From Candidatus Harpocratesius repetitus (lineage in GTDB: Archaea; Asgardarchaeota; Lokiarchaeia; Sigyniarchaeales; Promethearchaeaceae): a DNA stretch of 32,000 bases. The translations under genes were made by a program, and so were the position numbers. The notes below the pieces were generated by a model. That model did not search any database. It was given only the letters and a program-made list of their open reading frames with translations, and was not told where the DNA came from. Of this stretch, positions 6,972-26,177 are shown one piece after another (positions within the stretch are counted from its first letter, which is position 1; each line of letters opens with the position of its first letter). The DNA lies in NCBI GenBank assembly GCA_021498095.1, contig JAIZWK010000001.1, forward strand, positions 3,480,001 to 3,512,000. The letters are read 5' to 3'.

Positions 6972-9917
6972 TTAAAAAAATATTTTCTTCTTTCTTGCAT
7001 AGACTCGAATCAATTCAAAAGCAATTGTGCTTGGTAAACAAAGTAAAATGCATATCACCCAATCAGAAAAACTTAACGCTGTGAAATAAAAAGTGATATT
7101 CAGCGTTTCACCCATAAACTGCTGAAGGGGTAAACTGTAGATACCAATCACGAAAATTATCAATGAAGGTAAGTAGAAGAGAAATTCCAACCATCCTAAA
7201 TCTTTTAAAGAATCTAACAGAGAATAATTAATACGACGAATTTGCAAAGGCATAATTACTGATTCTGTAATAAATAATACCAGAAATCCCATAGTTCGTG
7301 CTTTTATTATTTGAGGATTTACAAGCATTTCAACTTTTTCTGGGGGTAATTTCGGATATGGATTGTCAATTGAACCAGGATAACCGATATTCGCCAAATT
7401 TACATCATTGACATGAATTATATCAAACATACAGAAATAATAAGCAATCGCAATCGCTGCACCCATAAGAACGAGTTGAACGGCTAAAATTTTAAGAATA
7501 TTTGGAGTAATTATTTCAGCTGAATTGCGAGGCGGTTCTTCCATGACTGTTTTTGCATTTTTTCCAAAAGTAAAACCGAATGAGGGAAAGAAATGAGCAG
7601 TTAGATAAATCAGATTAAGTTGCCAATAATACCACATCTGAAAATCGGGATTTGCAGGATTTAAAGTGCTGGTAAATAATATAATGGCTTCCATAACTGA
7701 AACAAGCACAAAGAAATAAATTATGGAACGAATTTTCATAAATAATCCACGACCTTCCTTAATTCCTGTCACAATAGTACTAAATGAATCGTCTGTGATA
7801 ATCATATCAGCAGCTTCTTTTGCCACTTCTGTTCCTTGAATTCCCATCGCTAATCCACAATCAGCCATAGATAAAGCTAAAGCATCATTTACACCATCCC
7901 CACTCATAGATACGATTTTATCCATTGCTTGAAACCGTGAAACAATAATTTGTTTATGTTCTGGTGAAACACGCCCATAAACTTTAGTTCGTAGAAAATC
8001 TTCATCAGAAAGCGTTTCAATTTGATTTCCTTCTCTTGCTAAATCGTGTTCGGGATCAAAAAGTCCAATTTTTTCAGCAATAGCTTTTCCAGTAGAAATA
8101 CTATCTCCTGTAATCATTATCACATCAACATTAGCCTTTTTGCATTCATCTACGGCAGAATAAACATCTTCACGAGGTGGATCTAAAATAACAACAAAAC
8201 CTAAATAGGTTAAATCTCGTTCATAATGCTCACGTGCATTATCGGATTCAAAATCAACTGTCATTATAGATTTTGTTAATCGTCTATAAGTTAAAGAAAG
8301 AATACGATACCCTTCTGCGGCAAATTCTTTCATACGTTCAAGAATTATATTTCGCATCTCTTCATTCATATCATATTCTTCTTCTCCCAAACGATATTTT
8401 GAACATAAAGGCAGAATCCATTCAGTTGCACCTTTACAAAATAATAAATTGGTGTTTTCCGGAGTTCTAAATACTTTACTCATCCTTTTGATAGAAGAAT
8501 CAAAACTAAATTCCAATAAAAACTGGTAATTAGAATATAAAGCATCAATATCGGGATGGTACTTTTTTGCCAAAACTTTCAAAGCTGCTTCTGTGGGTAA
8601 GCCCATAATATCCCAAGTTAACTTTTCTTTCTGATCTTTTCGAAGAGTCTTTACTATTCTCTGTTGAATTTGACAATTATTATTTAAATGACCAGATTCA
8701 ATTAATAACGCTAAATGTGTATCATGAGAGTTTATGTTAATAGTCTTATTATCGTCTTGCTTGATTATATTTCCTTCATAAGAATAACCTTCACCATCTA
8801 CTTTATACTCTGCATCAGGAGTCCAAACGTGGACAACAGTCATCTCATTTTTGGTTAAAGTTCCTGTTTTATCAGTACAGACAACCGAAACACGCCCTAA
8901 ACTCTCAGTTCGTGAGATTTCTCGAACAATAACGCCTTTTTGCGCCATTGTTAACACACCTGTAAGCAGAACAATAGTGGTCAATAGTGGAAGGTTGATC
9001 GGCATTATTTTCATACCAAGATCAATAGAATCAATAATGCCTTCTCTAATGGTTGGTTCCCAAATAAATTCATCGTGAAGCCAGTAAATATAAAGTTTGT
9101 ATATAACTGATGAAATAAGTAAAAAGACAACACCAATTCCTAAATATATCGCAATATGATTCATTTTTTTACGTAAAGGAATATCACCTGTAGTTGATTC
9201 TTCTAATTTAGTACTGATTTTTCCAATTTCAGTTTCAGAACCTACTCTAACTACAATTGCAGTACATTCACCAGAAGCAACAAAAGTTCCCAGAAATAAC
9301 ATATTCTTTTGATCTTGCAAAGGAATATCAATCCCATCTATTCCATGAGCAATAATGGATTTTTTAACAGGTTCAGACTCACCGGTTAAACTTGCTTCAT
9401 CAATTGATAAATTTCGTGCTTCTATAATTCGACAATCAGCAGGAATCTTATCACCTGGATGCAGCTGAACAATATCACCAACAGTAATTTTACTTGTAGG
9501 TAATTCGATATATTCTCCATTACGAAGAACATAAGTAGTTGCTTCACTTAACTGTTTCAATGCTTGTAACTGCTTTTCTGCTCTTAACTGTTGAACAATT
9601 GCAACAATCGCATTTGCTCCAAGAATAATAAAAGTTGGAACAGTTCGTTGAATATCACCTAAAATCCACATCAAAAAAGCACTGACAAGATAAATAATAA
9701 TGAGTAAATTGATAATTGGGGCAATGACTACCTTATAAAAGGAGCGTTTAACTTTTTTTAATTCATTTAGCCCATATTTTGTGAGATTTTGCTCTACTTG
9801 GGATGGAGAAAGCCCGGTTTTAGGATCCGCATTATACAATTTAATAATTTCAGATAATTCCATTGAATAAAATGGAGTAATGGGTCGTGCCAAAGTTTCT
9901 TCTTCTATAGTAGCCAT
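6972..9917 (-). CDS. P-type ATPase, P2A/SERCA-like scaffold with a non-canonical ion-binding site
   Basis: DEASLTGES, DKTGTLT, KGATE, DPPR, MITGD and GDGVNDA are all intact. M4 reads PINLP rather than PEGLP. Confidence 0.95.
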   Translation of the reverse strand: MATIEEETLARPITPFYSMELSEIIKLYNADPKTGLSPSQVEQNLTKYGLNELKKVKRSFYKVVIAPIINLLIIIYLVSAFLMWILGDIQRTVPTFIILGANAIVAIVQQLRAEKQLQALKQLSEATTYVLRNGEYIELPTSKITVGDIVQLHPGDKIPADCRIIEARNLSIDEASLTGESEPVKKSIIAHGIDGIDIPLQDQKNMLFLGTFVASGECTAIVVRVGSETEIGKISTKLEESTTGDIPLRKKMNHIAIYLGIGVVFLLISSVIYKLYIYWLHDEFIWEPTIREGIIDSIDLGMKIMPINLPLLTTIVLLTGVLTMAQKGVIVREISRTESLGRVSVVCTDKTGTLTKNEMTVVHVWTPDAEYKVDGEGYSYEGNIIKQDDNKTININSHDTHLALLIESGHLNNNCQIQQRIVKTLRKDQKEKLTWDIMGLPTEAALKVLAKKYHPDIDALYSNYQFLLEFSFDSSIKRMSKVFRTPENTNLLFCKGATEWILPLCSKYRLGEEEYDMNEEMRNIILERMKEFAAEGYRILSLTYRRLTKSIMTVDFESDNAREHYERDLTYLGFVVILDPPREDVYSAVDECKKANVDVIMITGDSISTGKAIAEKIGLFDPEHDLAREGNQIETLSDEDFLRTKVYGRVSPEHKQIIVSRFQAMDKIVSMSGDGVNDALALSMADCGLAMGIQGTEVAKEAADMIITDDSFSTIVTGIKEGRGLFMKIRSIIYFFVLVSVMEAIILFTSTLNPANPDFQMWYYWQLNLIYLTAHFFPSFGFTFGKNAKTVMEEPPRNSAEIITPNILKILAVQLVLMGAAIAIAYYFCMFDIIHVNDVNLANIGYPGSIDNPYPKLPPEKVEMLVNPQIIKARTMGFLVLFITESVIMPLQIRRINYSLLDSLKDLGWLEFLFYLPSLIIFVIGIYSLPLQQFMGETLNITFYFTALSFSDWVICILLCLPSTIAFELIRVYARKKKIFF

Positions 9918-10357
9918 ATACTTCAACCGTAAAAAATTTCAGTTTTGATCTGAAATTAAATATATAATTAGTTGTTTAGAGATTCGTAAAAAGACTTACA
10001 TTTCTTAAAAAGCAATTAATTTATGAGGATCTAGCAATTTTTATAATTTTAAAGATTTTTGATTTTTTAGCTCAAGATTACTCTGATTTTATATTTTTAT
10101 CCCTTTTTTATTTTAGTCGGGTGTTTTGGATTATTATTTGTTGTAATATTGAAGAAAATGAAGGACAACTTGGACTGCATTTGCATATTAATTGTTTATA
10201 ATGAATTGATAAAAAAGCAATCTATTTTAATGACGAACAAATTGTATTCAAACGATTATTTTTTCCTGATCAAATATGATCAACCAAAATCGCTATTGGT
10301 TAAATCATAAAAATAATTCCATCTATTTAAATCTTTGGAAAGAAAATTCAGAGAAAA

Positions 10358-10618
10358 ATGCCTAAAGTCCACTGAAATGCCCAGAATTTATATGAGCATA
10401 AAGGAAATAGAAAAAATGTAATTGATAGTATTACTGCTTTAATCAGACAACTAAGAAATATCAAAGAAGTTCCACCAAATGGTTTGATTATGTATTCAGG
10501 TCAAATTCCCAAAGATAATAAACTAAGAAGTGAAAAAACCGAACTTTACATAATCGAACCGCCCGAACCAGTAACTACTTTTAAATATTATTGCGCTTCT
10601 GAATTTCTCTGTAATTGA
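10358..10618 (+). pseudogene. aRF1/eRF1 N-domain fragment
   Basis: Manual translation: MPKVH*NAQNLYEHKGNRKNVIDSITALIRQLRNIKEVPPNGLIMYSGQIPKDNKLRSEKTELYIIEPPEPVTTFKYYCASEFLCN*. PPNGL, IEPPEP and YxCxxxF are eRF1 domain-1 hallmarks. In-frame TGA at 10373. Confidence 0.85.
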
Positions 10619-10652: not shown

Positions 10653-10707
10653 TTCGAATTCTTTGATATTATATTTTTTCCGAAAAATTTTTATATGAAA
10701 TATTAAC
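10653..10707 (+). repeat. Conserved ~55-bp upstream segment, copy 1 (copy 2 at 12589-12642); possible promoter of the array units
   Basis: ttcga.ttctt.gatatta.attttttccgaaaaatttttat.tgaa..attaac occurs at both places, each time ahead of a protease-gene unit. Confidence 0.75.
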
Positions 10708-10768
10708 AACCATTAAGAAATGACAGTATAAAACCAAATAAGAATTCAGTTTTTTTATGAATGTCCAC

Positions 10769-10817
10769 AATTGTCGTATTGAATTTTGCATCAGCTATAA
10801 AAATAAGCGAAAAAATC
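10769..10817 (+). pseudogene. Deletion remnant of protease gene copy A1
   Basis: 10769-10809 matches 14246-14286 (A2 signal-peptide region) with 2 mismatches in 41 bp. From 10818 the sequence matches 15584 onward (A2 stop and spacer). Confidence 0.85.
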
Positions 10818-10859
10818 ATTATAAATGAATAAAGGAAAATTATAGGAGTGAAAATTATC

Positions 10860-11762
10860 ATGAAAAAATCAAAAAGTAAAAAAAAAAAAAGAAACGTCTT
10901 GTTTAAAAATAAATTAGCTGTTTTTCTGATTGCAGTTTTTATTTCCACTGCATTTTTCGAATTCCAAGCCGTTCCATATGCAACGGCACTTTCCACTGGA
11001 TTAAAACCCGGAGATGTTATTGTATACGACTATACGGATACTGGTTCCTATTTTGACACTAATATGTCTTTAGTTGATTTTTATGAATATAATTCGGATC
11101 AAATCGTGGAAAACATATTGGCGGTTAAAAATTCCGGAGATAAAATTGAAGTAAATTTTTTAGTGCAAGATGAGATTGGAGAAGAAAATCATACATTGGT
11201 TCTTAATTCGACATCTCCCATGGGTAGATTAATTATTCCCCAAGAAAATATAGGGTTTAATTTTTCTAATTCAGAATTTTTCAATTATCTTAATAGATGT
11301 TTGAACACAAATGAACTAGTTCTGGCTGGCATTTCTCCTGAAGGAAACATAACTTGGGACTATGAAGTATTAACAAATGGTCATGGTTTTCAGATTAACG
11401 CAAATTATACGAATTATAAATATAATTGCACAGAGTATTATAATTTTTCCGTAAGCTTGTTCTATTCCAGTTCTGGGGTATTACTACGGAGAATTCAAGA
11501 ATATAGTGTTAAAGTACCTCCAGATTATTACCGAAACGGCGCAATTCTTTGGGTTTGGATTAAAAAAACATCTATCAATGAAACTTTATCAACTTTTGAA
11601 GGAAAAGATGAACGTCCATGGGATCCGAACTATATTTATCCGGATAATACTTTAGATGATGGCCAACAAAAACTGATTTCTCTTGGGAGATTTGGATTCA
11701 TTGGAATTTTTGGAGTATCTGTTCTCTTTTTGATCAGAAAAAATAAATTAACAAAAAAATGA
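10860..11762 (+). CDS. Secreted/surface protein B1 with an alternative C-terminal membrane anchor
   Basis: Basic + hydrophobic signal peptide, many N-x-S/T sequons, near-identical to B2 up to DERPWDPNY, then a different TM + basic tail. An AGGAG motif precedes ATG 10860. Confidence 0.85.
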   Translation: MKKSKSKKKKRNVLFKNKLAVFLIAVFISTAFFEFQAVPYATALSTGLKPGDVIVYDYTDTGSYFDTNMSLVDFYEYNSDQIVENILAVKNSGDKIEVNFLVQDEIGEENHTLVLNSTSPMGRLIIPQENIGFNFSNSEFFNYLNRCLNTNELVLAGISPEGNITWDYEVLTNGHGFQINANYTNYKYNCTEYYNFSVSLFYSSSGVLLRRIQEYSVKVPPDYYRNGAILWVWIKKTSINETLSTFEGKDERPWDPNYIYPDNTLDDGQQKLISLGRFGFIGIFGVSVLFLIRKNKLTKK

Positions 11763-11940
11763 AGATGAATTTTACAATTTGAATACTCCTTTTTTTTATT
11801 CCATCTTCTTAATTTTCATTTAATTTATGTATTTGAAGAATTATATCTGTTAAAGCGAATACAAAGTTTTCTTTTTAGATAAGCATCTTCTTTTGGATAT
11901 TTTCCATAAAGTTTTTATCACATTATAAATTCGAATTTAT

Positions 11941-12333
11941 ATGGTAGGTCGCCCTTTAAAGCCCCAAACCAAGATCTTTCGAGATTTTGAGATAGAAACA
12001 CCTTCTGGTGATATAAAAACGCTTAAAGAAATACTAATCTGCTGTCCAATTTGCCATTCTTCTCACGTTGGAAATCATGGAACACGAAAGCGAGGAAATA
12101 CCCGAGTTCAAATTTATCAATGTAAAAATCCGAATTGTGCTTTTCTGAAACACGCAAACCAAGGGAAGCAGTTTACGATTTATAGCAGTCTGATGGTAAA
12201 TTCGATCGTAAATCATTATCTCCATGAAATTTTAGCGAAATTATTTAAATCTGAAGGAAAACTGATTAATATTAGGAAAAACTACTCTCTTTCACCCAGT
12301 TTAATGTCTTATTTGAATAAAAAGACATTGTGA
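11941..12333 (+). mobile_element. Truncated IS1-like (InsA-type zinc ribbon) transposase
   Basis: CPICHSSHVGNHG...VQIYQCKNPNC...KQF. No DDE domain follows. 11764-12085 is repeated at 25844-26177. Confidence 0.7.
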
Positions 12334-12444
12334 TTGAAAGATTTAACTATGAACAAAACAATCGAATCACTACAACAATCGGAGTGAAATCAGATTTTGC
12401 TAAAAAAAGAGCGAAAAGGGAATATTTTTACGCAGAAGTGAAAT

Positions 12445-12546
12445 TCAACTATTTTTCCGTTTTTGAAATAAAAGGTCGGCTTCTTGTAATTGCCTGCGCA
12501 TAACTTTACCTACTGCATTTTTTGGCATTTCATCGATAATTTCGAA
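12445..12546 (-). pseudogene. C-terminal remnant of an acyl-CoA synthetase (AMP-binding enzyme)
   Basis: Manual translation FEIIDEMPKNAVGKVMRRQLQEADLLFQKRKNS* contains the A10-type LPKxxxGK..RR motif. Confidence 0.8.
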
Positions 12547-12643
12547 AGCGCTGGAATGATCAAAGAAAATTATCAAATATATAATTAGTTCGATTTCTTG
12601 GATATTACATTTTTTCCGAAAAATTTTTATCTGAACATTAACG

Positions 12644-14182
12644 ATGTAATTGGTTTTTTATAGTTTTTCTTGTCTTGAAATTTTTATAAAATCTTAATTT
12701 TGATTCAATTTCGGTAGAATTGTTCATATTTTATTTCTTTGCAGGGATGCATTGCAATTTTGAGAGATAAAGGGAATAATTTAAAAGCTAAGCTTTCTTA
12801 CCCTTGGATATGTCTACAAATCTTAGGGGAAATCCATCGGCTGCCACCGATATTGGAAAAATTACTCCCGATCTAATTAATCCGCAGTTACTTTTAGATA
12901 TTGTGAAAATGATAGATCCTGTGATTTCCCAAAAATTGCCTCAGAAGCGAAGTGGATTTTCCTACACCATCTTCGTTTTATTTGCATGTTGTATGCAAAT
13001 TTTAAGACTTTCGCCCCGACACACTTCAGAAATTTTCCAAGAAAAGTGTTCTCGCGCTCAAATTTCATTTCAATCCTACTCAGTTACCAAATTTTCAAAT
13101 GGCAAACAACGGAGATTCTTCCCTGATCAACCTGCTCTTTCTCGATGTCTTCAAACCTTGTCTAAGTTAGATTTAGTTGAAGAATTTTGGAATTCTGTAC
13201 TTTTAGCACATTTATTAATTCTCAAATCTTTGAAAATTATAGGTTCGGATCTAAAGTTAATAGCAGATTATACTGATACGCCGTGCAAGAAAAATAAAGA
13301 CGATCCTTATTGTTTCGGGAAAAAAGAAGGCAAAACAGTTCATCGTACGCTTAGTTTTTCCGTTATTTCAGGTGATATTCATCAAATGATTGCCAATTTC
13401 AAAATTAAAAAGCGTCAAGATAAACTTCCTTTATTTCACAATGTCCATGAGATGCTAATTTCTAACTGCTTTTCCATAAAATATGCTATGCTTGACCGAG
13501 GCTTTTATCGTAAAAGAATACTAAAGTTCTTTCAGCAGAAGCACATAACCGTGATTATGCCAGGAAGAAAATGTGCGCAGACAAAACAAAAAATTATGAA
13601 CTACTTGAATGGAATTGGCAAAAGATACTGCAAAGGTGTAATTAAGGGTAAATACGTAAAAAAAAAGGGGTTTTTACCCATTAAATTCGATCTTCTGCTT
13701 GTTGCTAAACGCAGATTTAATTTAAAAGAAATCATTCAAGATTTTAATCAAAAAAAGATCAGTGAACAAGTCGCCAGCAGCCGTATTTTTCCCCTAATTG
13801 TTATGTTCTGCTCAAAATCAGGCATAAAAACCCTACACGGCAACGAGAATTATATTCGAGATCTTTATCGCCAAAGATGGTTAATAGAAATTGCATTTCG
13901 TGAAATGAATCGGTTTGGCATTGCACAAAAGGTGCAAGATCGCAATAGCCGGCTGAATACTATGGGAGTACGATGCTTTTTGTACAATATATGGCAGACA
14001 CAACGATTTCTAATAAAGAAAAGCGATCCTTCTGCAGCAAATTTGGAATTGAATGAATTTCTTGGAATGTGCTCAAATCATCGGTATCCATTATATTTAT
14101 CATCCATGAATTGAAAGAAGTAATATTATCATGGAGAAATGAATAAATTAATCTTAAATAGAAGAAAAAGGATCAATTACAT
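12644..14182 (+). mobile_element. IS4-superfamily (ISH3-like) insertion sequence, about 1.54 kb
   Basis: Imperfect terminal inverted repeats: atgtaattg at 12644-12652 and caattacat at 14174-14182, each flanked internally by T/A tracts. No clear target-site duplication. Confidence 0.65.
12804..14114 (+). CDS. DDE transposase (IS4/ISH3-like)
   Basis: IADYT, MLDRGFY and LYRQRWLIEIAFRE (YxxRxxxE signature). Confidence 0.9.
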   Translation: MDMSTNLRGNPSAATDIGKITPDLINPQLLLDIVKMIDPVISQKLPQKRSGFSYTIFVLFACCMQILRLSPRHTSEIFQEKCSRAQISFQSYSVTKFSNGKQRRFFPDQPALSRCLQTLSKLDLVEEFWNSVLLAHLLILKSLKIIGSDLKLIADYTDTPCKKNKDDPYCFGKKEGKTVHRTLSFSVISGDIHQMIANFKIKKRQDKLPLFHNVHEMLISNCFSIKYAMLDRGFYRKRILKFFQQKHITVIMPGRKCAQTKQKIMNYLNGIGKRYCKGVIKGKYVKKKGFLPIKFDLLLVAKRRFNLKEIIQDFNQKKISEQVASSRIFPLIVMFCSKSGIKTLHGNENYIRDLYRQRWLIEIAFREMNRFGIAQKVQDRNSRLNTMGVRCFLYNIWQTQRFLIKKSDPSAANLELNEFLGMCSNHRYPLYLSSMN

Positions 14183-14213
14183 AGTGAATGATCTGAAAAA
14201 AAAAAAAAAAAGC

Positions 14214-15590
14214 ATGGCAAAAAAAATATGTTATTTTATAATCATAATTGTCGTATTGAATTCTGCATCAGCTATAAAAACAAGCGGAACAAGCTTAGAA
14301 AATACCAATTTATTGAATGGAAATTTGATTGGTTTAAGGTTAAATTTCAACAATGAAGAGCCCATTAAAATCGATAATTCAGCATCTTTCAAAATCGTTT
14401 CAGATAATTTTTTAGATAAAGGAGTAGATATCTTTATTTATTCGAAATTGGGGAATTTTCTTTTTGATAACTTTGAAGTATCGGTAAAGAACTATTTCTA
14501 TCAAGATAAAATTCAGAAATTAGATTTATATATTGAAAATTCGACTATTGGCTTCTTTGCCGAAATTCACCATCAAGCGAACTATGTAAGAATTGATTTT
14601 GCCTTTGAGTATAATTCCTCCCAACTTTCTTTCATGGGGTTATTTCAATCATCAAATTTAGAGAGGATTTACTCTGAATTTAATCGAGTAACAGAAAAAC
14701 AGAAGAATTTTATTTGCGATTCAAAAAACACTATCTTGGATATTAATCAGATTAATATGATATCAAAAAAAGAGTCGGAGAAATTTCTAAACAGCATTCA
14801 TTTCCAATATCTAAATCCTAGTGGTTTTGGAGAATCATTAAAAAGTGATGGAAGCTCGTTGCTATGTTGACGACCGCCTCAAGCATCAGGTTTAGTCATT
14901 AGAGATTATATGATTATTCATCAAAGTGGGGGAACTTACAAAATTGGAAATGATGATTTTCCTATAGACATTGTAAATTATATGGAATCGAATCCCAATG
15001 TTGATATAGATGTCGGAATTGCTCGAATCGGGCCTTCAGAAAGCCAAATAAAAAGTGATCTTCAATATTATAACAAGGATACTGAATATTTTGGATCTTT
15101 GCGAACAATTAGGAATATTGTTGCTTATGAATGGTTTGGCCATGGAGGCTCAAATCGTGAATGGATAATTCAGCAAGAAGTATATGACTATAAATTTCAA
15201 TTGTATATATGGCAAGAAGTAGGTAGGATTTATCCTGATGAAATTTCATCCCTCTGGGGTGATTCATCTTCAGGAAATTATGTTTACCATGTTTTTATGG
15301 ATAATGCAATAATTCTAGCATTTGCCTGTCAAAATTGGGGAACAACATTATCTTCCACACCAAACATGGGATCAGCATTTGTATATGATGGATATGCATC
15401 CAGTTGGGTTGGTTTTACAATAGATTTGCCCCAAACCAGCACTGATGATTGTTCAGAAACATTTTGGTATGCTTTTTGCAACAATGGAGCGGATGTCGAG
15501 GATGCAACAATTGCGATGTGTGATCTTTATCTTGATTTTGAATATGGAGATAATTGTGGTATTTATGGTTCTATTTCACAAAAATTATAA
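14214..15590 (+). pseudogene. Secreted clan-CD-like cysteine protease A2, split by one in-frame TGA (14868-14870)
   Basis: ORFs 14139..14870 and 14910..15590 are in the same frame with 13 sense codons between them, collinear with intact A3. The start at ATG 14214 is chosen by comparison with A3. FGHGG and FACQNWG are retained. Confidence 0.85.
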
Positions 15591-15625
15591 ATGAATAAAG
15601 GAAAATTATAGGAGTGAAAATTATC

Positions 15626-16534
15626 ATGAAAAAATCAAAAAGTAAAAAAAAAGAAAGAAACGTCTTGTTTAAAAATAAATTAGCTGTTTTTCTAATTGCA
15701 GTTTTTATTTCCAATGCATTTTTTGAATTCCAAGCCGTTCCATATGCAACGGCACTTTCCACTGGATTAAAACCCGGAGATGTTATTGTATACGATTATA
15801 CGGATACTAGTTCCTATTTTGACACTAATATGTCTTTAGTTGATTTTTATGAACATATTTCGACCCAAATCGTGGAAAACATATTGGCGGTTAAAAATTT
15901 CGAAGATAAAATTGAAATAGATTTTAAATTGCAATTACCATATGAGAATAAGGAAGAAAATCATACATGGGTTCTTAATTCGACTCTTTACTTAGGTAGC
16001 TCTCCTATTCCCCAAGAAAATATAGGGTTTAATTTTTCTGATTCAGAATTTTTCAATTATCTTAATAGATGTTTGAACATAAATGAACTAGTTCTGGCTG
16101 GCATTTCTCCTGAAGGAAACATAACTTGGGATTATGAAGTATTAACAAATGGTCTTGGATTTCAGATTAACGCAAATTATACGAATTATAAATATAATTA
16201 CACAAAGTATTACAATTTTTCCGTGAGCTTGTTCTATTCCAGTTCTGGGGTATTACTGCGGAGAATTCAAGAATTTAGTGTTAAAGTACCTCCAGATTAT
16301 TATCAAGACGGCGCAATTCTTTGGGTTTGGAGTAAAAAAACATCTATCAATGTAACTTTATCTAATTTTGACGGTAAAGATGAACGTCCTTGGGATCCGA
16401 ATTATACTTATCCTAGTGATATTTCAGAAAACGGAAACATTCCCGGTTATAATTTAGGCATTTTTATAGGAATTATGTTTACCGCTTCACTCTTCATTAT
16501 AAGAAAGCGAAAACACAAGTATTACAACGATTGA
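15626..16534 (+). CDS. Surface protein B2 with a Loki-CTERM-type sorting signal
   Basis: Signal peptide; C-terminus NIPGYNLGIFIGIMFTASLFIIRKRKHK (IPGY + TM + basic cluster). Confidence 0.85.
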   Translation: MKKSKSKKKERNVLFKNKLAVFLIAVFISNAFFEFQAVPYATALSTGLKPGDVIVYDYTDTSSYFDTNMSLVDFYEHISTQIVENILAVKNFEDKIEIDFKLQLPYENKEENHTWVLNSTLYLGSSPIPQENIGFNFSDSEFFNYLNRCLNINELVLAGISPEGNITWDYEVLTNGLGFQINANYTNYKYNYTKYYNFSVSLFYSSSGVLLRRIQEFSVKVPPDYYQDGAILWVWSKKTSINVTLSNFDGKDERPWDPNYTYPSDISENGNIPGYNLGIFIGIMFTASLFIIRKRKHKYYND

Positions 16535-16709
16535 TTATTCATTTTCTTTCTTTTTTCAATATTGCCTATATTAATAAATTTCTAAGTCAGTTTGGTAAAA
16601 TTTTTATTTTTTATAGAAATCAGTTAAAAAATATCGGTTATATCAATAACATAAATCTGGATTAACAAGATTTTATGATTTTCCGGTAAAAGAACGACGA
16701 AATTCTAAA

Positions 16710-16943
16710 ATGGAGCAAAAATTTGGTCAAGAGAAATCAAATTTCATCCAACGCAGTGGGAAGGCAAATATAAGCAGTCAAATTCGTGTTAGAAGGATAT
16801 TTAAATTAAAAATTCAAAATACATCGCTTTCTGAAATAGAATCATACATAGATTCTCCTGAACGTTCATATTCTCGAGACAAGATACATCAAAGATTAAC
16901 AATGCTAAAAGAAAGGCAAGAATTTGAAAAAAAATCTTACTAA
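16710..16943 (+). CDS. Small basic hypothetical protein
   Basis: 77-aa ORF between units 2 and 3; no motif recognised. Confidence 0.4.
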   Translation: MEQKFGQEKSNFIQRSGKANISSQIRVRRIFKLKIQNTSLSEIESYIDSPERSYSRDKIHQRLTMLKERQEFEKKSY

Positions 16944-17087
16944 TTTCCCAATTGATTTTTCACTTTTCACAAGTTCAATCATAAAGATATCATAAAAAAA
17001 TCAACCAACTTTGCGAGAACAATTATCTGTTTTAACTATAGGAGAAAGCAAAAACTTTATAAATATAAGAAAATAAAAAAAAAAAAC

Positions 17088-18461
17088 ATGACAAAAAGAG
17101 AAATATGTTATTTAATAATCTTATTTGTCGTTTTTATTTCCGCTTCAACTTTAAAAACCAATGGAATAAACGTAGAAAATTCCACTTTACTAAATGGGAA
17201 CCTTATCGGTTATAGATTAAATTTAAATGATGAACAACCTATGAAAATAGATAGTGAAGCATCATTTAATATTATCTTGGATAATTTTCAAGAAAAAAAA
17301 GTATGGATATTTTTTTATTCTCGATTCGGTGATTTTATATTTGATAATTTTGAATTATCTATCAAGAATTATTTATATCAAGGAAAAATCCAAAAATTCG
17401 ATTTATATATTGAAAACTCAAGTATGGGTTTTTTTGCAGAAATTCATCATCAGGCAAATTATTTAAGAATTGATTTTGCATTTGAAAAAAATGAATCTCA
17501 ATTTTCATTCATGGGTTTATCTCAGTCAAATAATTTAGAAGGATTTTGTTCAATTTTTAATCAATTATCGCCGAATAAGGAACAAGTGTTATGTAAAAAA
17601 AAAAGTATTAATCTAGATCTTAATCAGATTAAACTGTTATCAAAAAAAGAGTCTGAAAATTTTATAAATAGTATTAATTTTCATAGATTCAATGACCTTA
17701 ACCATGATTTATCCAAAGGTGGCAATACTCAACTAATTAAACAAAAACCTCGGGTTTCGGGTTACACAATTACAAAAGATATGATTATTCATCAAAGTGG
17801 GGGAACTGCAGAAATTGTAAATGATGATTTTCCAATAAACATTGTAAATTATATGGAATCTAATCCCAATGTTGATATAGAGGTCGGAATTGCTCGAATC
17901 GGGCCGTCAGAAAGCCAAATAAAAAGTGATCTCCAGTATTATAATAAAGATACAGAATATTGCTATTCAATTAGATCTATACGCGATATTGTTGCTTATG
18001 AGTGGTTCGGTCATGGTGGTTCAAACCGTGAATGGATAATTCAACAAGAGACATATGACTATAATATTGGATGGTATGAATGGCAAGAAGTTGGTAGAAT
18101 TTATCCATCTGAAATTACTTCTCTTTGGGGTGATTCATCCTCAGGAAATTATAATTATCATGTTTTTATGGATAATGCAATAATTTTGACATTCGCATGT
18201 CAGAATTGGGGAACAACATTATCTACAAACCCGATTATGGGGTCCGCATTTGTAGATGATGGTTATGCATCCAGTTGGGTTGGTTTTACTATAGATCTAC
18301 CGCAAGATATCACCGATGATTGTTCGGAAGCGTTTTGGTATGAATTTTGTTCGATCGGAAAAAATGTAGAGGACGCAACAATCGCTTTATGCGATATTTC
18401 AACAATTTTTAGTTATGGAGTCAATTGTGGAATTTATGGTTCTATTTCACAAACATTATAA
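17088..18461 (+). CDS. Secreted clan-CD-like (caspase/gingipain-fold) cysteine protease A3, intact
   Basis: Signal peptide, ~200-aa N-domain, then EWFGHGG (His codon at 18012), ILTFACQNWG (Cys codon at 18198), SWVGFT and FWYEFC..GKNVEDA. An A-tract and TTTATAAATA lie upstream. Confidence 0.72.
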   Translation: MTKREICYLIILFVVFISASTLKTNGINVENSTLLNGNLIGYRLNLNDEQPMKIDSEASFNIILDNFQEKKVWIFFYSRFGDFIFDNFELSIKNYLYQGKIQKFDLYIENSSMGFFAEIHHQANYLRIDFAFEKNESQFSFMGLSQSNNLEGFCSIFNQLSPNKEQVLCKKKSINLDLNQIKLLSKKESENFINSINFHRFNDLNHDLSKGGNTQLIKQKPRVSGYTITKDMIIHQSGGTAEIVNDDFPINIVNYMESNPNVDIEVGIARIGPSESQIKSDLQYYNKDTEYCYSIRSIRDIVAYEWFGHGGSNREWIIQQETYDYNIGWYEWQEVGRIYPSEITSLWGDSSSGNYNYHVFMDNAIILTFACQNWGTTLSTNPIMGSAFVDDGYASSWVGFTIDLPQDITDDCSEAFWYEFCSIGKNVEDATIALCDISTIFSYGVNCGIYGSISQTL

Positions 18462-18491
18462 AAAAATTTTTTCAAAGGAGGAAATTTAAAA

Positions 18492-19394
18492 GTGAAAAGT
18501 CAAAAAATAAAAAAAAAAAGATTTCAACTCTCGAAATATTCGATCATATTTTTAATAAGTGCATTTATTTTTTTTCCTATATTTTACGAATTACATGCCA
18601 TTCCATACGCATCGGCATTTTCTACAGGATTGAAGCCGGGAGATGTTATCGTGGATGAATTTATAGATATGAATTCTTATTACGATTCAAATATGACATT
18701 ACTTGATTTTTACATAGATCAGAAGAAGATGACAACAAATATTACAGATATTAGATATTTGAACGAAAACATTGAAATTCACCTTGTATACCGAGATCTT
18801 ATTATGGAAAAAGACGAAATCGGCGTTGTTATCATTAATTCGTCCCTACCTCTGGGAACTGCTTATATCCCCCAAGAATATATCGGGTTCAATTTTTCCG
18901 ATTCAGCATTTCTTGACTATATTAATTTTTATTTCGAGCATAGAATTATGGAAGATGATCGCCCTGAAGGAAATTTTACTTGGAATCATGAAATATTGGC
19001 AAAAGGTCTCGGTTTTCGGATTAATGCGAATTATACGAATTATAAATTTAATTGCACAAAAGAATACAATTTAACTGTAAGTTTGTATTATTCCCGTTCT
19101 GGAGTTTTACTGCGGAGAATTGAAGAATTGCGGATTAAATTACCGCCTAATTATAATTATAGTATTGACAATACAGTACTTATTGTTTCGAATAAAAACA
19201 CATTTATCAATTCCACTTTATCTAATTTTGACGGTAAAGATGAACGTCCTTGGGATCCAAATTATACTTATCCAAGTGTTATTTCAGAAAACGAAAACAT
19301 TCCCGGTTATAATATAGGCATTTTTATAGGATTTGTGTGTACCGCTTCACTCTTCATTATAAGAAAGCGAAAACACAAATATTACAACGATTGA
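18492..19394 (+). CDS. Surface protein B3 with a Loki-CTERM-type sorting signal
   Basis: Divergent paralogue of B1/B2; ends NIPGYNIGIFIGFVCTASLFIIRKRKHK. AAGGAGG precedes GTG 18492. Confidence 0.85.
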   Translation: MKSQKIKKKRFQLSKYSIIFLISAFIFFPIFYELHAIPYASAFSTGLKPGDVIVDEFIDMNSYYDSNMTLLDFYIDQKKMTTNITDIRYLNENIEIHLVYRDLIMEKDEIGVVIINSSLPLGTAYIPQEYIGFNFSDSAFLDYINFYFEHRIMEDDRPEGNFTWNHEILAKGLGFRINANYTNYKFNCTKEYNLTVSLYYSRSGVLLRRIEELRIKLPPNYNYSIDNTVLIVSNKNTFINSTLSNFDGKDERPWDPNYTYPSVISENENIPGYNIGIFIGFVCTASLFIIRKRKHKYYND

Positions 19395-19423
19395 TTATTC
19401 ATTTTCCTTCTTTTTTCAATATT

Positions 19424-19489
19424 GCCTATATTAATAAATTTCAAAGCCGATATTAACAAATTTTTAAGCCTATATTAATAAATTTTAAA
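19424..19489. repeat. 22-bp direct repeat x3 (gcctatattaataaattt(c/t)aaa-like)
   Basis: Units at 19424, 19446 and 19468. One copy is present at 16564 after B2. Confidence 0.85.
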
Positions 19490-19505
19490 TAATGGAAGCG
19501 TCCGC

Positions 19506-19778
19506 TTGATAAATGAAAGTGATTTGAACCAAATGGTCAAAATCTGGAATGATTTTCCAGAATTTTTTACATCTCCAGGCAGAACTCATACTTTAGAAAC
19601 ATTAAAAACTTGGTTTCAAAACCTACATCAAGATTATCATGATTATTATGGATATTTTTCAACAAATAATACTGTAGATGATGGCCAGCAAAAACTGATT
19701 TCTCTCGGGAGATTTAAATTCATTGGAATTTCAAGAATAATTGTTCTCTTATTGATCAGAAAGAAAAATTCGCTTTAA
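19506..19778 (+). CDS. Small chimeric ORF ending in the same anchor tail as B1
   Basis: C-terminus DDGQQKLISLGRFKFIGISRIIVLLLIRKK is homologous to the B1 C-terminus. Confidence 0.5.
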   Translation: MINESDLNQMVKIWNDFPEFFTSPGRTHTLETLKTWFQNLHQDYHDYYGYFSTNNTVDDGQQKLISLGRFKFIGISRIIVLLLIRKKNSL

Positions 19779-19875: not shown

Positions 19876-20343
19876 TTACAAATCTTCATTATTAATTGGA
19901 GAATCAGAAACAGACTGCAAATATAAATCTATTATACGGTTTTTTATCGCACTTGAACTATGAAGGGTGTATTTTGTATAAAGCTTTTCTAACCGACGAA
20001 CTTCTATGTTTCCGGCATTATTTTTAGATAAAAGTTCCTTTAATTTAGAAACACTTATTTTTTGGTTGGGACCTAAAAGGATAATATCTGGTTTTAAACT
20101 TAGGGCTTTGGCAAGATAATTGTTATTTTCATTACCTAACGTTGCATAAGTCACATATTTTATAGATTGGATAATTTCTAAGCGTTGCTGCTCACAAATA
20201 ATTGGAGGTTGCTTCTTCCACTTCTTAATTGTAGAATCACGTGCAAGAATTACATATACATCTCCTAATTTTGCAGCTTCTTGAAAGAGAAACAAATGAC
20301 CAGGATGTAAAATGTCAAAACATCCAGTTACTAATACCCGCAT
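19876..20343 (-). CDS. ribL: Archaeal FAD synthase (cytidylyltransferase-like)
   Basis: TGCFDILHPGH (HxGH), ARD, and SSSAIK..I at the C-terminus. Confidence 0.85.
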   Translation of the reverse strand: MRVLVTGCFDILHPGHLFLFQEAAKLGDVYVILARDSTIKKWKKQPPIICEQQRLEIIQSIKYVTYATLGNENNNYLAKALSLKPDIILLGPNQKISVSKLKELLSKNNAGNIEVRRLEKLYTKYTLHSSSAIKNRIIDLYLQSVSDSPINNEDL

Positions 20344-25843: not shown

Positions 25844-26177
25844 GATGAATTTCAAAATTCAATGACCAATTTGGATACTACTTTTTTTTATTCCATCTTC
25901 TCAATATTCTTTTTATTTGTGTATTTGAAGGATATCTCCTTCTAAAGCGAAGATAAAGTTGTTCTTCTACATAAGATTCTTTTTTTGGATATTTTTCACA
26001 AAGTTTTTATCACACTAAAAATTCGAATTTATATGGTAGGACGCCCTCGAAAGCCCCAAACCAAGATCTTTCGAGATTTTGAGATAGAAACACCTTCTGG
26101 TGATATAAAAATGCTTAAAGAAATACTAATCTGCTGTCCAAATTTCCATTCTTCTCACGTTTGAAATCATGGAACAC
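25844..26177 (+). mobile_element. Second, more decayed copy of the IS1-like element end
   Basis: Homologous to 11764-12085. The ORF from ATG 26033 stops at TGA 26162-26164 after 43 codons. Confidence 0.8.

Follow-up and report, generated by a model that had tools for sequence, protein, structure and literature searches.

A partly decayed tandem array pairing a predicted secreted clan CD peptidase with a membrane-anchored protein in Candidatus Harpocratesius repetitus

A 32,000-nt window of the genome of the Asgard archaeon Candidatus Harpocratesius repetitus (positions 3,480,001-3,512,000 of its single 4.36-Mb contig; coordinates below count from the start of the window) was analysed and contains, between 10653 and 19778 on the plus strand, a two-gene cassette repeated in a tandem array that has partly decayed. 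The first gene of the cassette, A, is best read as coding for a secreted peptidase of clan CD, and the second, B, for a predicted type-I surface protein with a C-terminal transmembrane segment and basic tail (TM-basic tail) as its membrane anchor. Units are numbered by position (A1/B1 to A3/B3). At a rough probability of 0.55, we favour the reading in which the anchored B keeps the secreted, anchor-less protease A at the cell surface or controls it there. The nearest relatives of the proteins in the window carry the NCBI label 'Candidatus Harpocratesius sp.'.

The original prediction, made from the sequence of the window, had described three A-B units that diversify by duplication, every A gene being directly followed by a B gene. 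Three B genes were indeed found in true repeats, and all three are intact; A3 is the sole intact A gene, A2 being interrupted by a nonsense codon and separated from a promoter-like box by an insertion sequence (IS), and A1 being reduced to a remnant of ~77 bp. What remains is one A-B pair in full, a second in which A is broken, and a B preceded by no more than a scar of A. B follows A directly, as had been claimed, with gaps of 23-35 nt, except that in unit 1 only the A remnant stands ahead of B1. Duplication is evident from the repeats, but the array is decaying and the B tails have been exchanged.

Gene A and its family

The A3 protein begins with a signal peptide of the basic-hydrophobic-SAS type. 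Both A3 and A2 carry the motifs FGHGG, (L/T)FACQNWG, WVGF and FWY..F..G..VEDA, and the Cys codon of A3 lies at 18198, all as originally described; the His of the first motif is residue 309. A model of A3 was computed with AlphaFold2 from an alignment of 42 family members and reached a mean predicted local distance difference test (pLDDT) of 85 and a predicted template modelling score (pTM) of 0.86. In this model, an eight-stranded beta domain (strands 32-146) leads into helices that end at residue 193; residues 204-221 form a disordered linker, and an alpha/beta domain starts at residue 225. Clan CD peptidases have a six-stranded central sheet (beta1-beta6) with five helices around it, the catalytic His at the C-terminal end of beta3, the catalytic Cys at the C-terminal end of beta4, and a small sheet on loop L3 (PMC4357240). 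The modelled C-domain of A3 agrees with this definition in its order of elements, having six core strands, with His309-Gly310 closing strand 294-310, Ala370-Cys371 placed right after strand 365-369, and a beta-hairpin (316-338) on L3 following His309-Gly310.

Structure searches with the model led to the same clan. The significant Foldseek matches were SAVED-CHAT (E 8.5e-7) and Csx29, and those ranked next were mostly separase, gingipain, C11 and caspase structures. In a search independent of Foldseek, performed over 48,161 chains, the top 30 matches all fell on the C-domain and nearly all belonged to clan CD; they included legumain, metacaspases, an asparaginyl ligase and the glycosylphosphatidylinositol (GPI) transamidase PIGK. 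At the sequence level, positions 352-429 of the A-family hidden Markov model matched Asgard CHAT proteins of 1,147 aa with 27.5 bits (hhalign probability 88%), the family Cys aligning on their 'INACES' motif; these proteins themselves score 116 bits to CHAT and 40 bits to Peptidase_C25. Against the three true C25 genes of the genome (133-210 bits to Peptidase_C25, one of them bearing its own VPGF-TM tail), hhalign returned a non-significant E of 0.086, and the forced, likewise non-significant alignment set GHG on GHG and AC on AC and also lined up the AF..G..VG block and the final strand. Judged by sequence and model together, gingipain-type C25 peptidases and CHAT are probably the nearest clan CD relatives of A.

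The clan CD fold that had been proposed for the C-domain was borne out, with HG and AC at the canonical positions in the model, the structure searches and the CHAT alignment, and we consider a clan CD fold with an intact dyad highly probable; catalysis by A is a prediction. No anchor follows the catalytic domain in any inspected full-length sequence of the family. Because fold, dyad and signal peptide occur together with this lack of an anchor, a secreted clan CD peptidase is the best reading of A.

Pfam, NCBIfam and PDB sequence models gave no usable match to A or its 41 aligned relatives. The database comparisons that had been suggested at the outset did not place A in any Pfam family: Peptidase_C25 (PF01364) matched neither A3 nor A2 at E<=1 and none of the 42 members at E<=0.01, Pfam searches gave no Peptidase_C14 (caspase/metacaspase) assignment for A, and for CHAT (PF12770) no Pfam match was obtained with A3, A2 or family members, the similarity being at superfamily level only. 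For DUF6345 (PF19872), which had also been named, there was no Pfam match, hhalign against nine Asgard DUF6345 proteins gave 0.1%, and a weak language-model lead (0.85) was the sole return. A language-model search with the N-domain of A yielded no result. No description of the A family was found in the literature on Loki-CTERM, Asgard gingipain or Harpocratesius; with neither a paper nor a database model found, the statement that this is not a described Asgard system stood.

An exhaustive phmmer search over 1.84 billion cluster representatives recovered 57 relatives of A, most of 420-490 aa and covering both domains. Among 400 Asgard species genomes, the A profile matched 29, about a dozen of them at full length, with a patchy spread. 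Members with a named source, all entered as 'hypothetical protein', come from Promethearchaeota, 'Ca. Lokiarchaeum ossiferum' (WP_371805561.1) and Thorarchaeota. Near-invariant in the family are H235 (at the end of beta1), R270, S280-D281, Y285, E342, W347, C371 and F416-W417; His309 is present in 32 and Cys371 in 38 of the 42 members, and H235, H309 and C371 occur together in 28, every Harpocratesius copy among them. Residue 236, beside H235, is mostly Glu or Gln. In legumain and RgpB the third catalytic residue is located at the end of beta1, and by analogy H235 or residue 236 may occupy this position in A. The ratio of nonsynonymous to synonymous substitution rates (dN/dS) was ~0.2 in both A domains and 0.13-0.26 across A comparisons.

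Two further observations concern the family. Position 309 is Glu in six members from two separate clades, with Cys371 and His235 retained, and these members may represent recurrent inactivation or an alternative catalytic arrangement. The N-terminal barrel of A matches proteins that have no protease domain (E 3e-12 to 5e-10; loci L027 at G142:C1:1584366-1584881, L025 and L030), one of these proteins being a tetratricopeptide-repeat (TPR) protein of 601 aa; the barrel is therefore a separable module.

The DUF6345 proteins of Asgard family f31 (~700 aa; L055, L053-L062) have a terminal domain with 'YYQDHG' and 'DACSPL', resembling a clan CD dyad. They are also encoded side by side, by three tandem genes on G348:C311 and by two on G350:C177. 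From these motifs, DUF6345 may itself be an unrecognised caspase-fold peptidase.

Gene B and its linkage to A

In the B proteins, a basic-hydrophobic N-terminus leads into an ectodomain of ~230 aa, in which 9-11 N-x-S/T sequons occur; they also share a conserved 'DERPWDPNY' stalk and end in a TM-basic tail. They are predicted to be type-I surface proteins, heavily N-glycosylatable and held in the membrane by this tail. The IPGY-TM-basic tails that had been reported for B2 and B3 are Loki-CTERM signals (NF033507), scoring 24.0 bits in B2 and 28.5 bits in B3 against an NCBIfam cut-off of 19.9; the tail of B1 is different and gave no Loki-CTERM match. A private 'LISLG' TM tail is found on B1, as on the B proteins from other Harpocratesius genomes. 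Loki-CTERM/IPGY tails were found on 17-31 other, mostly large proteins of this genome, and Loki-CTERM is present in 14/14 genomes of the taxonomic family. As PF09721 (exosortase/archaeosortase) had no match in the single-contig genome despite these tails, the enzyme that would process Loki-CTERM is not apparent. Even with profile searches, database relatives of B numbered six, all from Harpocratesius-like assemblies. Weak leads from the B3 model to LolA-like half-barrels (Foldseek, TM-score 0.18-0.3) and from a language model to DUF3108 (0.76) agree with each other and were not relied on.

The two types of tail were swapped through insertion or gene conversion. Over the last ~125 nt of the gene and 52 nt downstream, B2 and B3 are 94-96% identical (19270-19446 versus 16410-16586: 94%), compared with 75% for the whole units. 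The B1 tail (11644-11749) recurs 3' of B3 at 19666-19770 with 87% identity and a B-profile E of 6e-5, and a 392-bp insertion, which carries the Loki-CTERM coding end, parts the B3 body from this displaced tail. Within the insertion, 19484-19669 is a 97% copy of genome positions 2043169-2043354, the 5' end of a gene that looks GNAT-like by eye. On this sequence comparison, Loki-CTERM is a secondary acquisition brought by the 392-bp insertion. Given the insertion debris and the displaced tail, the open reading frame (ORF) of 90 aa at 19506-19778 is chimeric.

B3 starts 30 nt after A3, and an AGGAGG box lies 9 nt before its GTG start; A and B are predicted to be co-transcribed. Every known B stands directly after an A: the three described here (B1 after the A1 remnant), and those at L001, L051 and L052. 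L001 is a single A-B pair, and L051 and L052 are two pairs on two contigs of one metagenome-assembled genome, both contigs breaking inside A at the most conserved motif of the family. The originally proposed pairing with an anchored partner, and the survey of A-B adjacency that was to accompany it, came out in two parts: across the Asgard genomes B was never seen away from A, but outside Harpocratesius A mostly occurs without B, next to unrelated anchored proteins.

In those other lineages, A is usually found beside a small protein with signal peptide and C-terminal TM-basic tail, belonging to unrelated families. The neighbour is a 152-aa protein with 'NIPG'-TM at L014, a 226-aa protein at L017 and a 320-aa type-I protein at L016. 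At L018, L019, L020 and L045, it is a 187-247-aa member of a 'VEQDRSPHE' family, located 4-9 nt after A or overlapping it. A weak relative of B (19.9 bits) lies upstream of A at L002. In 'Ca. Lokiarchaeum ossiferum' (L044, CP163304.1), the gene for WP_371805561.1 is located between a NosD/beta-helix gene and a TM-anchored SBP_bac_5 gene, an arrangement that points to a possible connection with peptide uptake. At L013 and L010, where enough flanking sequence is available, A has no small anchored neighbour. In most loci, A and the anchored neighbour are 4-44 nt apart. The combination of signal peptide and C-terminal TM segment, scored by a simple hydropathy rule on the ORFs of this genome, has a background of 3.1% among ORFs of at least 100 aa and 0.9% among those of 120-350 aa. 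As the linked loci are partly non-independent, we count them as about six lineages. Because an anchored neighbour recurs across lineages, the data suggest, with somewhat favourable odds, a functional coupling between this neighbour and A.

The 'VEQDRSPHE' proteins combine a signal peptide with one beta-rich ectodomain, which holds the conserved motif, and end in a TM-basic tail. Homology tests of the A N-domain against B, of the 'VEQDRSPHE' family against B, and of this family against the A N-domain were all negative.

For B, dN/dS was 0.22-0.63. Residues 61-160 of the young B1/B2 pair differ by nonsynonymous and synonymous changes in a ratio (Nd:Sd) of 29:4, versus 18:14 elsewhere (Fisher p 0.006); dN/dS above 1 in this patch was not significant (p 0.26). 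The rates point to purifying selection on both A and B up to the present.

Decay has affected the units differently. In unit 1, the promoter-like box is followed by only ~77 bp of the A 5' end and then by the B1 leader, and A1 has therefore been deleted; the remnant, with a core (10769-10809) that is 95% identical to 14246-14286, passes straight into sequence 92% identical to the A2 3' end and B2. A2 is one frame interrupted by a single TGA between its two domains, listed as two ORFs (14139-14870 and 14910-15590), with its His codon at 15141 and its Cys codon at 15327. A recent nonsense mutation is the preferred explanation for A2. Programmed read-through and a split gene were considered and rejected, since the C-domain ORF behind the stop, which would start with 'MIIHQSGG', would have no signal peptide. 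As dN/dS between A2 and A3 is 0.20, the inactivation of A2 is recent. In addition, a 1.5-kb IS separates the A2 start from the promoter-like box at 12589-12635.

Interpretation and known systems

On the favoured reading, A would be exported by the Sec pathway without a membrane anchor; it may leave the cell as a zymogen, its active site kept under the control of the barrel domain and the linker. A would find its place at the cell surface by docking on the anchored B or by being regulated through it, and would there cleave extracellular or surface proteins. B would be translated about 30 nt downstream of A from its own Shine-Dalgarno box, and the two proteins may be in contact. Docking, tethering or control of A at the surface, taken by itself, is held tentatively, as a possible but doubtful step, although it ranks ahead of each rival reading. 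Complex prediction for A3 (residues 30-457) and B3 (40-272) gave an ipSAE of 0.00 in both runs, performed without controls, and is uninformative either way.

Several results weigh against this reading. B homologues are limited to the genus Harpocratesius and the anchored partners of A in other lineages are not homologous to B; any A-B interface is therefore not ancient. The B3 model is poor (pLDDT 57). Position 309 is Glu, Asp, Ser or Ile in 10 of the 42 A-family members, in at least two separate clades, so that some members may lack catalysis or rely on a different base, and the juxtaposition of His309 and Cys371 in A3 is itself a prediction from topology and structure alignments. The histories of the two genes are discordant, with synonymous divergence (dS) of 0.30-1.0 for the A 3' halves versus 0.85-1.4 for the adjoining B genes; the A3 3' half and its L051 copy, for example, differ by a dS of 0.30 and the neighbouring B genes by 1.2. 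This mismatch indicates that A copies were homogenised or B cassettes reassorted. With three intact B genes to one intact A, finally, a role of B independent of A fits at least as well.

This surplus of B is best explained if B is a cognate inhibitor or immunity protein against an A that could harm the surface of the own or of related cells, orphan B genes being kept after loss of A in the manner of orphan immunity genes in toxin-immunity arrays. With A1 cleanly deleted, B1 now comes directly after the promoter-like box, the variable patch in B has its excess of nonsynonymous differences, the B alleles are much older than the neighbouring A 3' halves, and the partners are non-homologous across lineages; operons of a protease and its inhibitor also have precedents in staphopain-staphostatin and the Tannerella KLIKK protease-potempin pairs. 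We nevertheless regard an inhibitor as unlikely, given that dN/dS above 1 in the patch lacks significance, that no inhibitor-like fold could be assigned to B, and that A is conserved and therefore shows no arms-race co-variation with B. That the unrelated partners share only the anchor is best accounted for either by tethering or by A acting on the anchor as a sortase. In the latter case, A would be a dedicated processing enzyme or transpeptidase for its neighbour, reading the C-terminal TM-basic signal or another site. This would suit the signal peptide and TM-basic tail that the unrelated partners have in common and the absence of a PF09721 archaeosortase match in a genome with so many Loki-CTERM/IPGY tails, and is quite improbable in view of the different tail on B1 and other Harpocratesius B proteins and of the distribution of the signal, which is present in all 14 genomes of the taxonomic family, the A profile matching 5/14. 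From this distribution it also follows that A is not a general sorting enzyme, and a general Loki-CTERM sortase was rejected. A clan CD 'sortase' that joins the partner ectodomain covalently to a lipid or envelope acceptor, as an archaeal analogue of GPI transamidase or PorU, is very improbable.

Direct interplay could also be absent altogether, A being a free extracellular peptidase that scavenges detrital protein and B a variable surface glycoprotein unrelated to it, with only the cassette and its transcription in common. Annotations of extracellular C25/C11 peptidases are routine for archaea from sediments, Promethearchaeota included, the anchored SBP_bac_5 gene after the A homologue of 'Ca. 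Lokiarchaeum ossiferum' suggests peptide uptake, and the histories of A and B disagree. Tight adjacency to a small anchored protein, however, recurs in about six lineages over a background of 1-3%, and every known B follows an A, which makes independence of the two rather unlikely. As for A being a caspase-fold protein that lacks catalysis, whether as a pseudo-protease or as a binding module, or the entire array being a dying, functionless remnant, the replacement of His309 in part of the family, the destruction of two of the three A copies, and the surrounding IS elements and gene pieces (aRF1 piece 10376-10618, GNAT-like piece 19484-19669) would all fit. This is hardly probable, since six copies (A3, A2, L001, L051, L052 and P0008) retain H235, H309 and C371, and since dN/dS for A (0.13-0.26) and B (0.2-0.4) denotes purifying selection to the present.

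Among characterised enzymes, the gingipains RgpB and Kgp (C25) are likewise secreted and, as in A, a beta-rich region precedes a cysteine peptidase domain with an HG...AC dyad. Only gingipain subdomain B was matched by A, however; the N-domain of A is an eight-stranded barrel and not a prodomain or subdomain A, and A is without an immunoglobulin-like domain, C-terminal domain or anchor. Unlike in gingipains, His and Cys are spaced by 62 residues in A because of hairpin insertions. CHAT (PF12770; SAVED-CHAT, Craspase Csx29) is the sole family with detectable sequence similarity to A. CHAT proteases of defence systems act inside the cell, and the structural matches belong to nucleotide- or RNA-activated defence systems, whereas A has a signal peptide and no sensor domain. 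Clan CD also includes enzymes that read C-terminal signals, namely the GPI transamidase PIGK and PorU, the C25-like sortase of the type IX secretion system (T9SS); the distribution of A, however, does not track Loki-CTERM. The Loki-CTERM tails of B2 and B3 resemble those of other proteins in the genome, unlike the B1 tail.

The gene order has its closest counterparts in the staphopain and KLIKK pairs, where a secreted protease gene is likewise followed by that of a small, fast-evolving partner and the partners of related proteases are dissimilar. Staphostatins and potempins are proven inhibitors, cytoplasmic or lipoprotein-attached, whereas the partner here is a predicted type-I glycoprotein with a C-terminal TM anchor. 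In kind, extracellular peptidases such as A are already known, because annotations of C25/C11 peptidases are common in archaea from sediments, Asgard archaea among them; new here are a divergent clan CD family invisible to databases, the barrel-plus-protease architecture and the recurrent small anchored neighbours. Asgard cell-surface biology is little known, yet central to ideas on partner interaction. A physical link between A and B would amount to two-component placement or control of a protease on an archaeal surface, and an enzymatic link could indicate a new protein-sorting route; if neither applies, the locus still adds one clan CD family and shows clearly, in an Asgard genome rich in repeats, a cassette that was duplicated, decayed and had its anchors swapped. 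'Ca. Lokiarchaeum ossiferum', which carries a member of the A family, has been cultured.

Locus layout and neighbouring features

Two minus-strand genes flank the array, one for a P-type ATPase (6972-9926) and one for a cytidylyltransferase (19876-20343); the features of the array are listed in Table 1. Identity between unit 2 (14195-16586) and unit 3 (17069-19446) is 75% across 2.4 kb, and the stretch made up of B1 and its leader (10818-11641) matches 15584-16413 at 92%. No further copies of A or B were found in the remainder of the 4.36-Mb genome. From their sequence, the AT-rich boxes at 10653-10699 and 12589-12635 are putative promoters.

Table 1. Features of the A-B array, in window coordinates
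Feature	Position	Strand	Remarks
Promoter-like AT-rich box (TATA/BRE-like), head of unit 1	10653-10699	+	second copy at 12589-12635, 91% identity
A1 5' remnant (signal-peptide region)	10749-10825	+	~77 bp; 83% identity to 14230-14301
B1, intact	10848-11762	+	likely ATG 10860; ancestral 'LISLG'-type TM-basic tail, no Loki-CTERM
Zn-finger ORF, multicopy IS-associated family	11941-12333	+	weak IS1/IS1595 Zn-ribbon matches; ~13 genome paralogues
ISH3-like IS, ~1.5 kb	~12623-14138	+	DDE transposase 12804-14114; between promoter-like box and A2
A2	14214-15590	+	likely start 14214; in-frame TGA 14868-14870 in interdomain linker
B2	15614-16534	+	likely ATG 15626; Loki-CTERM 16439-16519
77-aa ORF between B2 and A3	16710-16943	+	
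A3, sole intact A gene	17088-18461	+	457 aa
A3 signal peptide	17088-17147	+	
A3 predicted 8-stranded beta-barrel domain	17175-17696	+	
A3 predicted disordered linker	17697-17759	+	
A3 predicted clan CD domain	17760-18458	+	
A3 His309 codon	18012-18014	+	
A3 Cys371 codon	18198-18200	+	
B3	18492-19394	+	GTG start; 11 N-x-S/T sequons; Loki-CTERM 19299-19379
Insertion, source of B3 Loki-CTERM tail	19274-19665	+	392 bp
Displaced ancestral B tail	19666-19770	+	3' end of chimeric 90-aa ORF 19506-19778

The transposase of the ISH3-like IS scored 46 bits to DDE_Tnp_1 and 65 bits to ISH3, the latter under the NCBIfam cut-off, and the element has ~10 copies in the genome at 79-95% identity. The Zn-finger ORF upstream of it (CPIC...CKNPNC) is probably an IS-associated accessory gene; its paralogues are 35-50% identical, and an 89% partial copy lies in the window at ~25867-26177. 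The basic 77-aa ORF has no family match and one paralogue, 45% identical, at genome positions 3585149-3585379. At the left edge of the array, 10376-10618 on the plus strand is a gene fragment with an open frame of 80 codons, its protein being 80% identical to part of the gene at 799638-799853 and resembling a piece of aRF1/eRF1 by eye.

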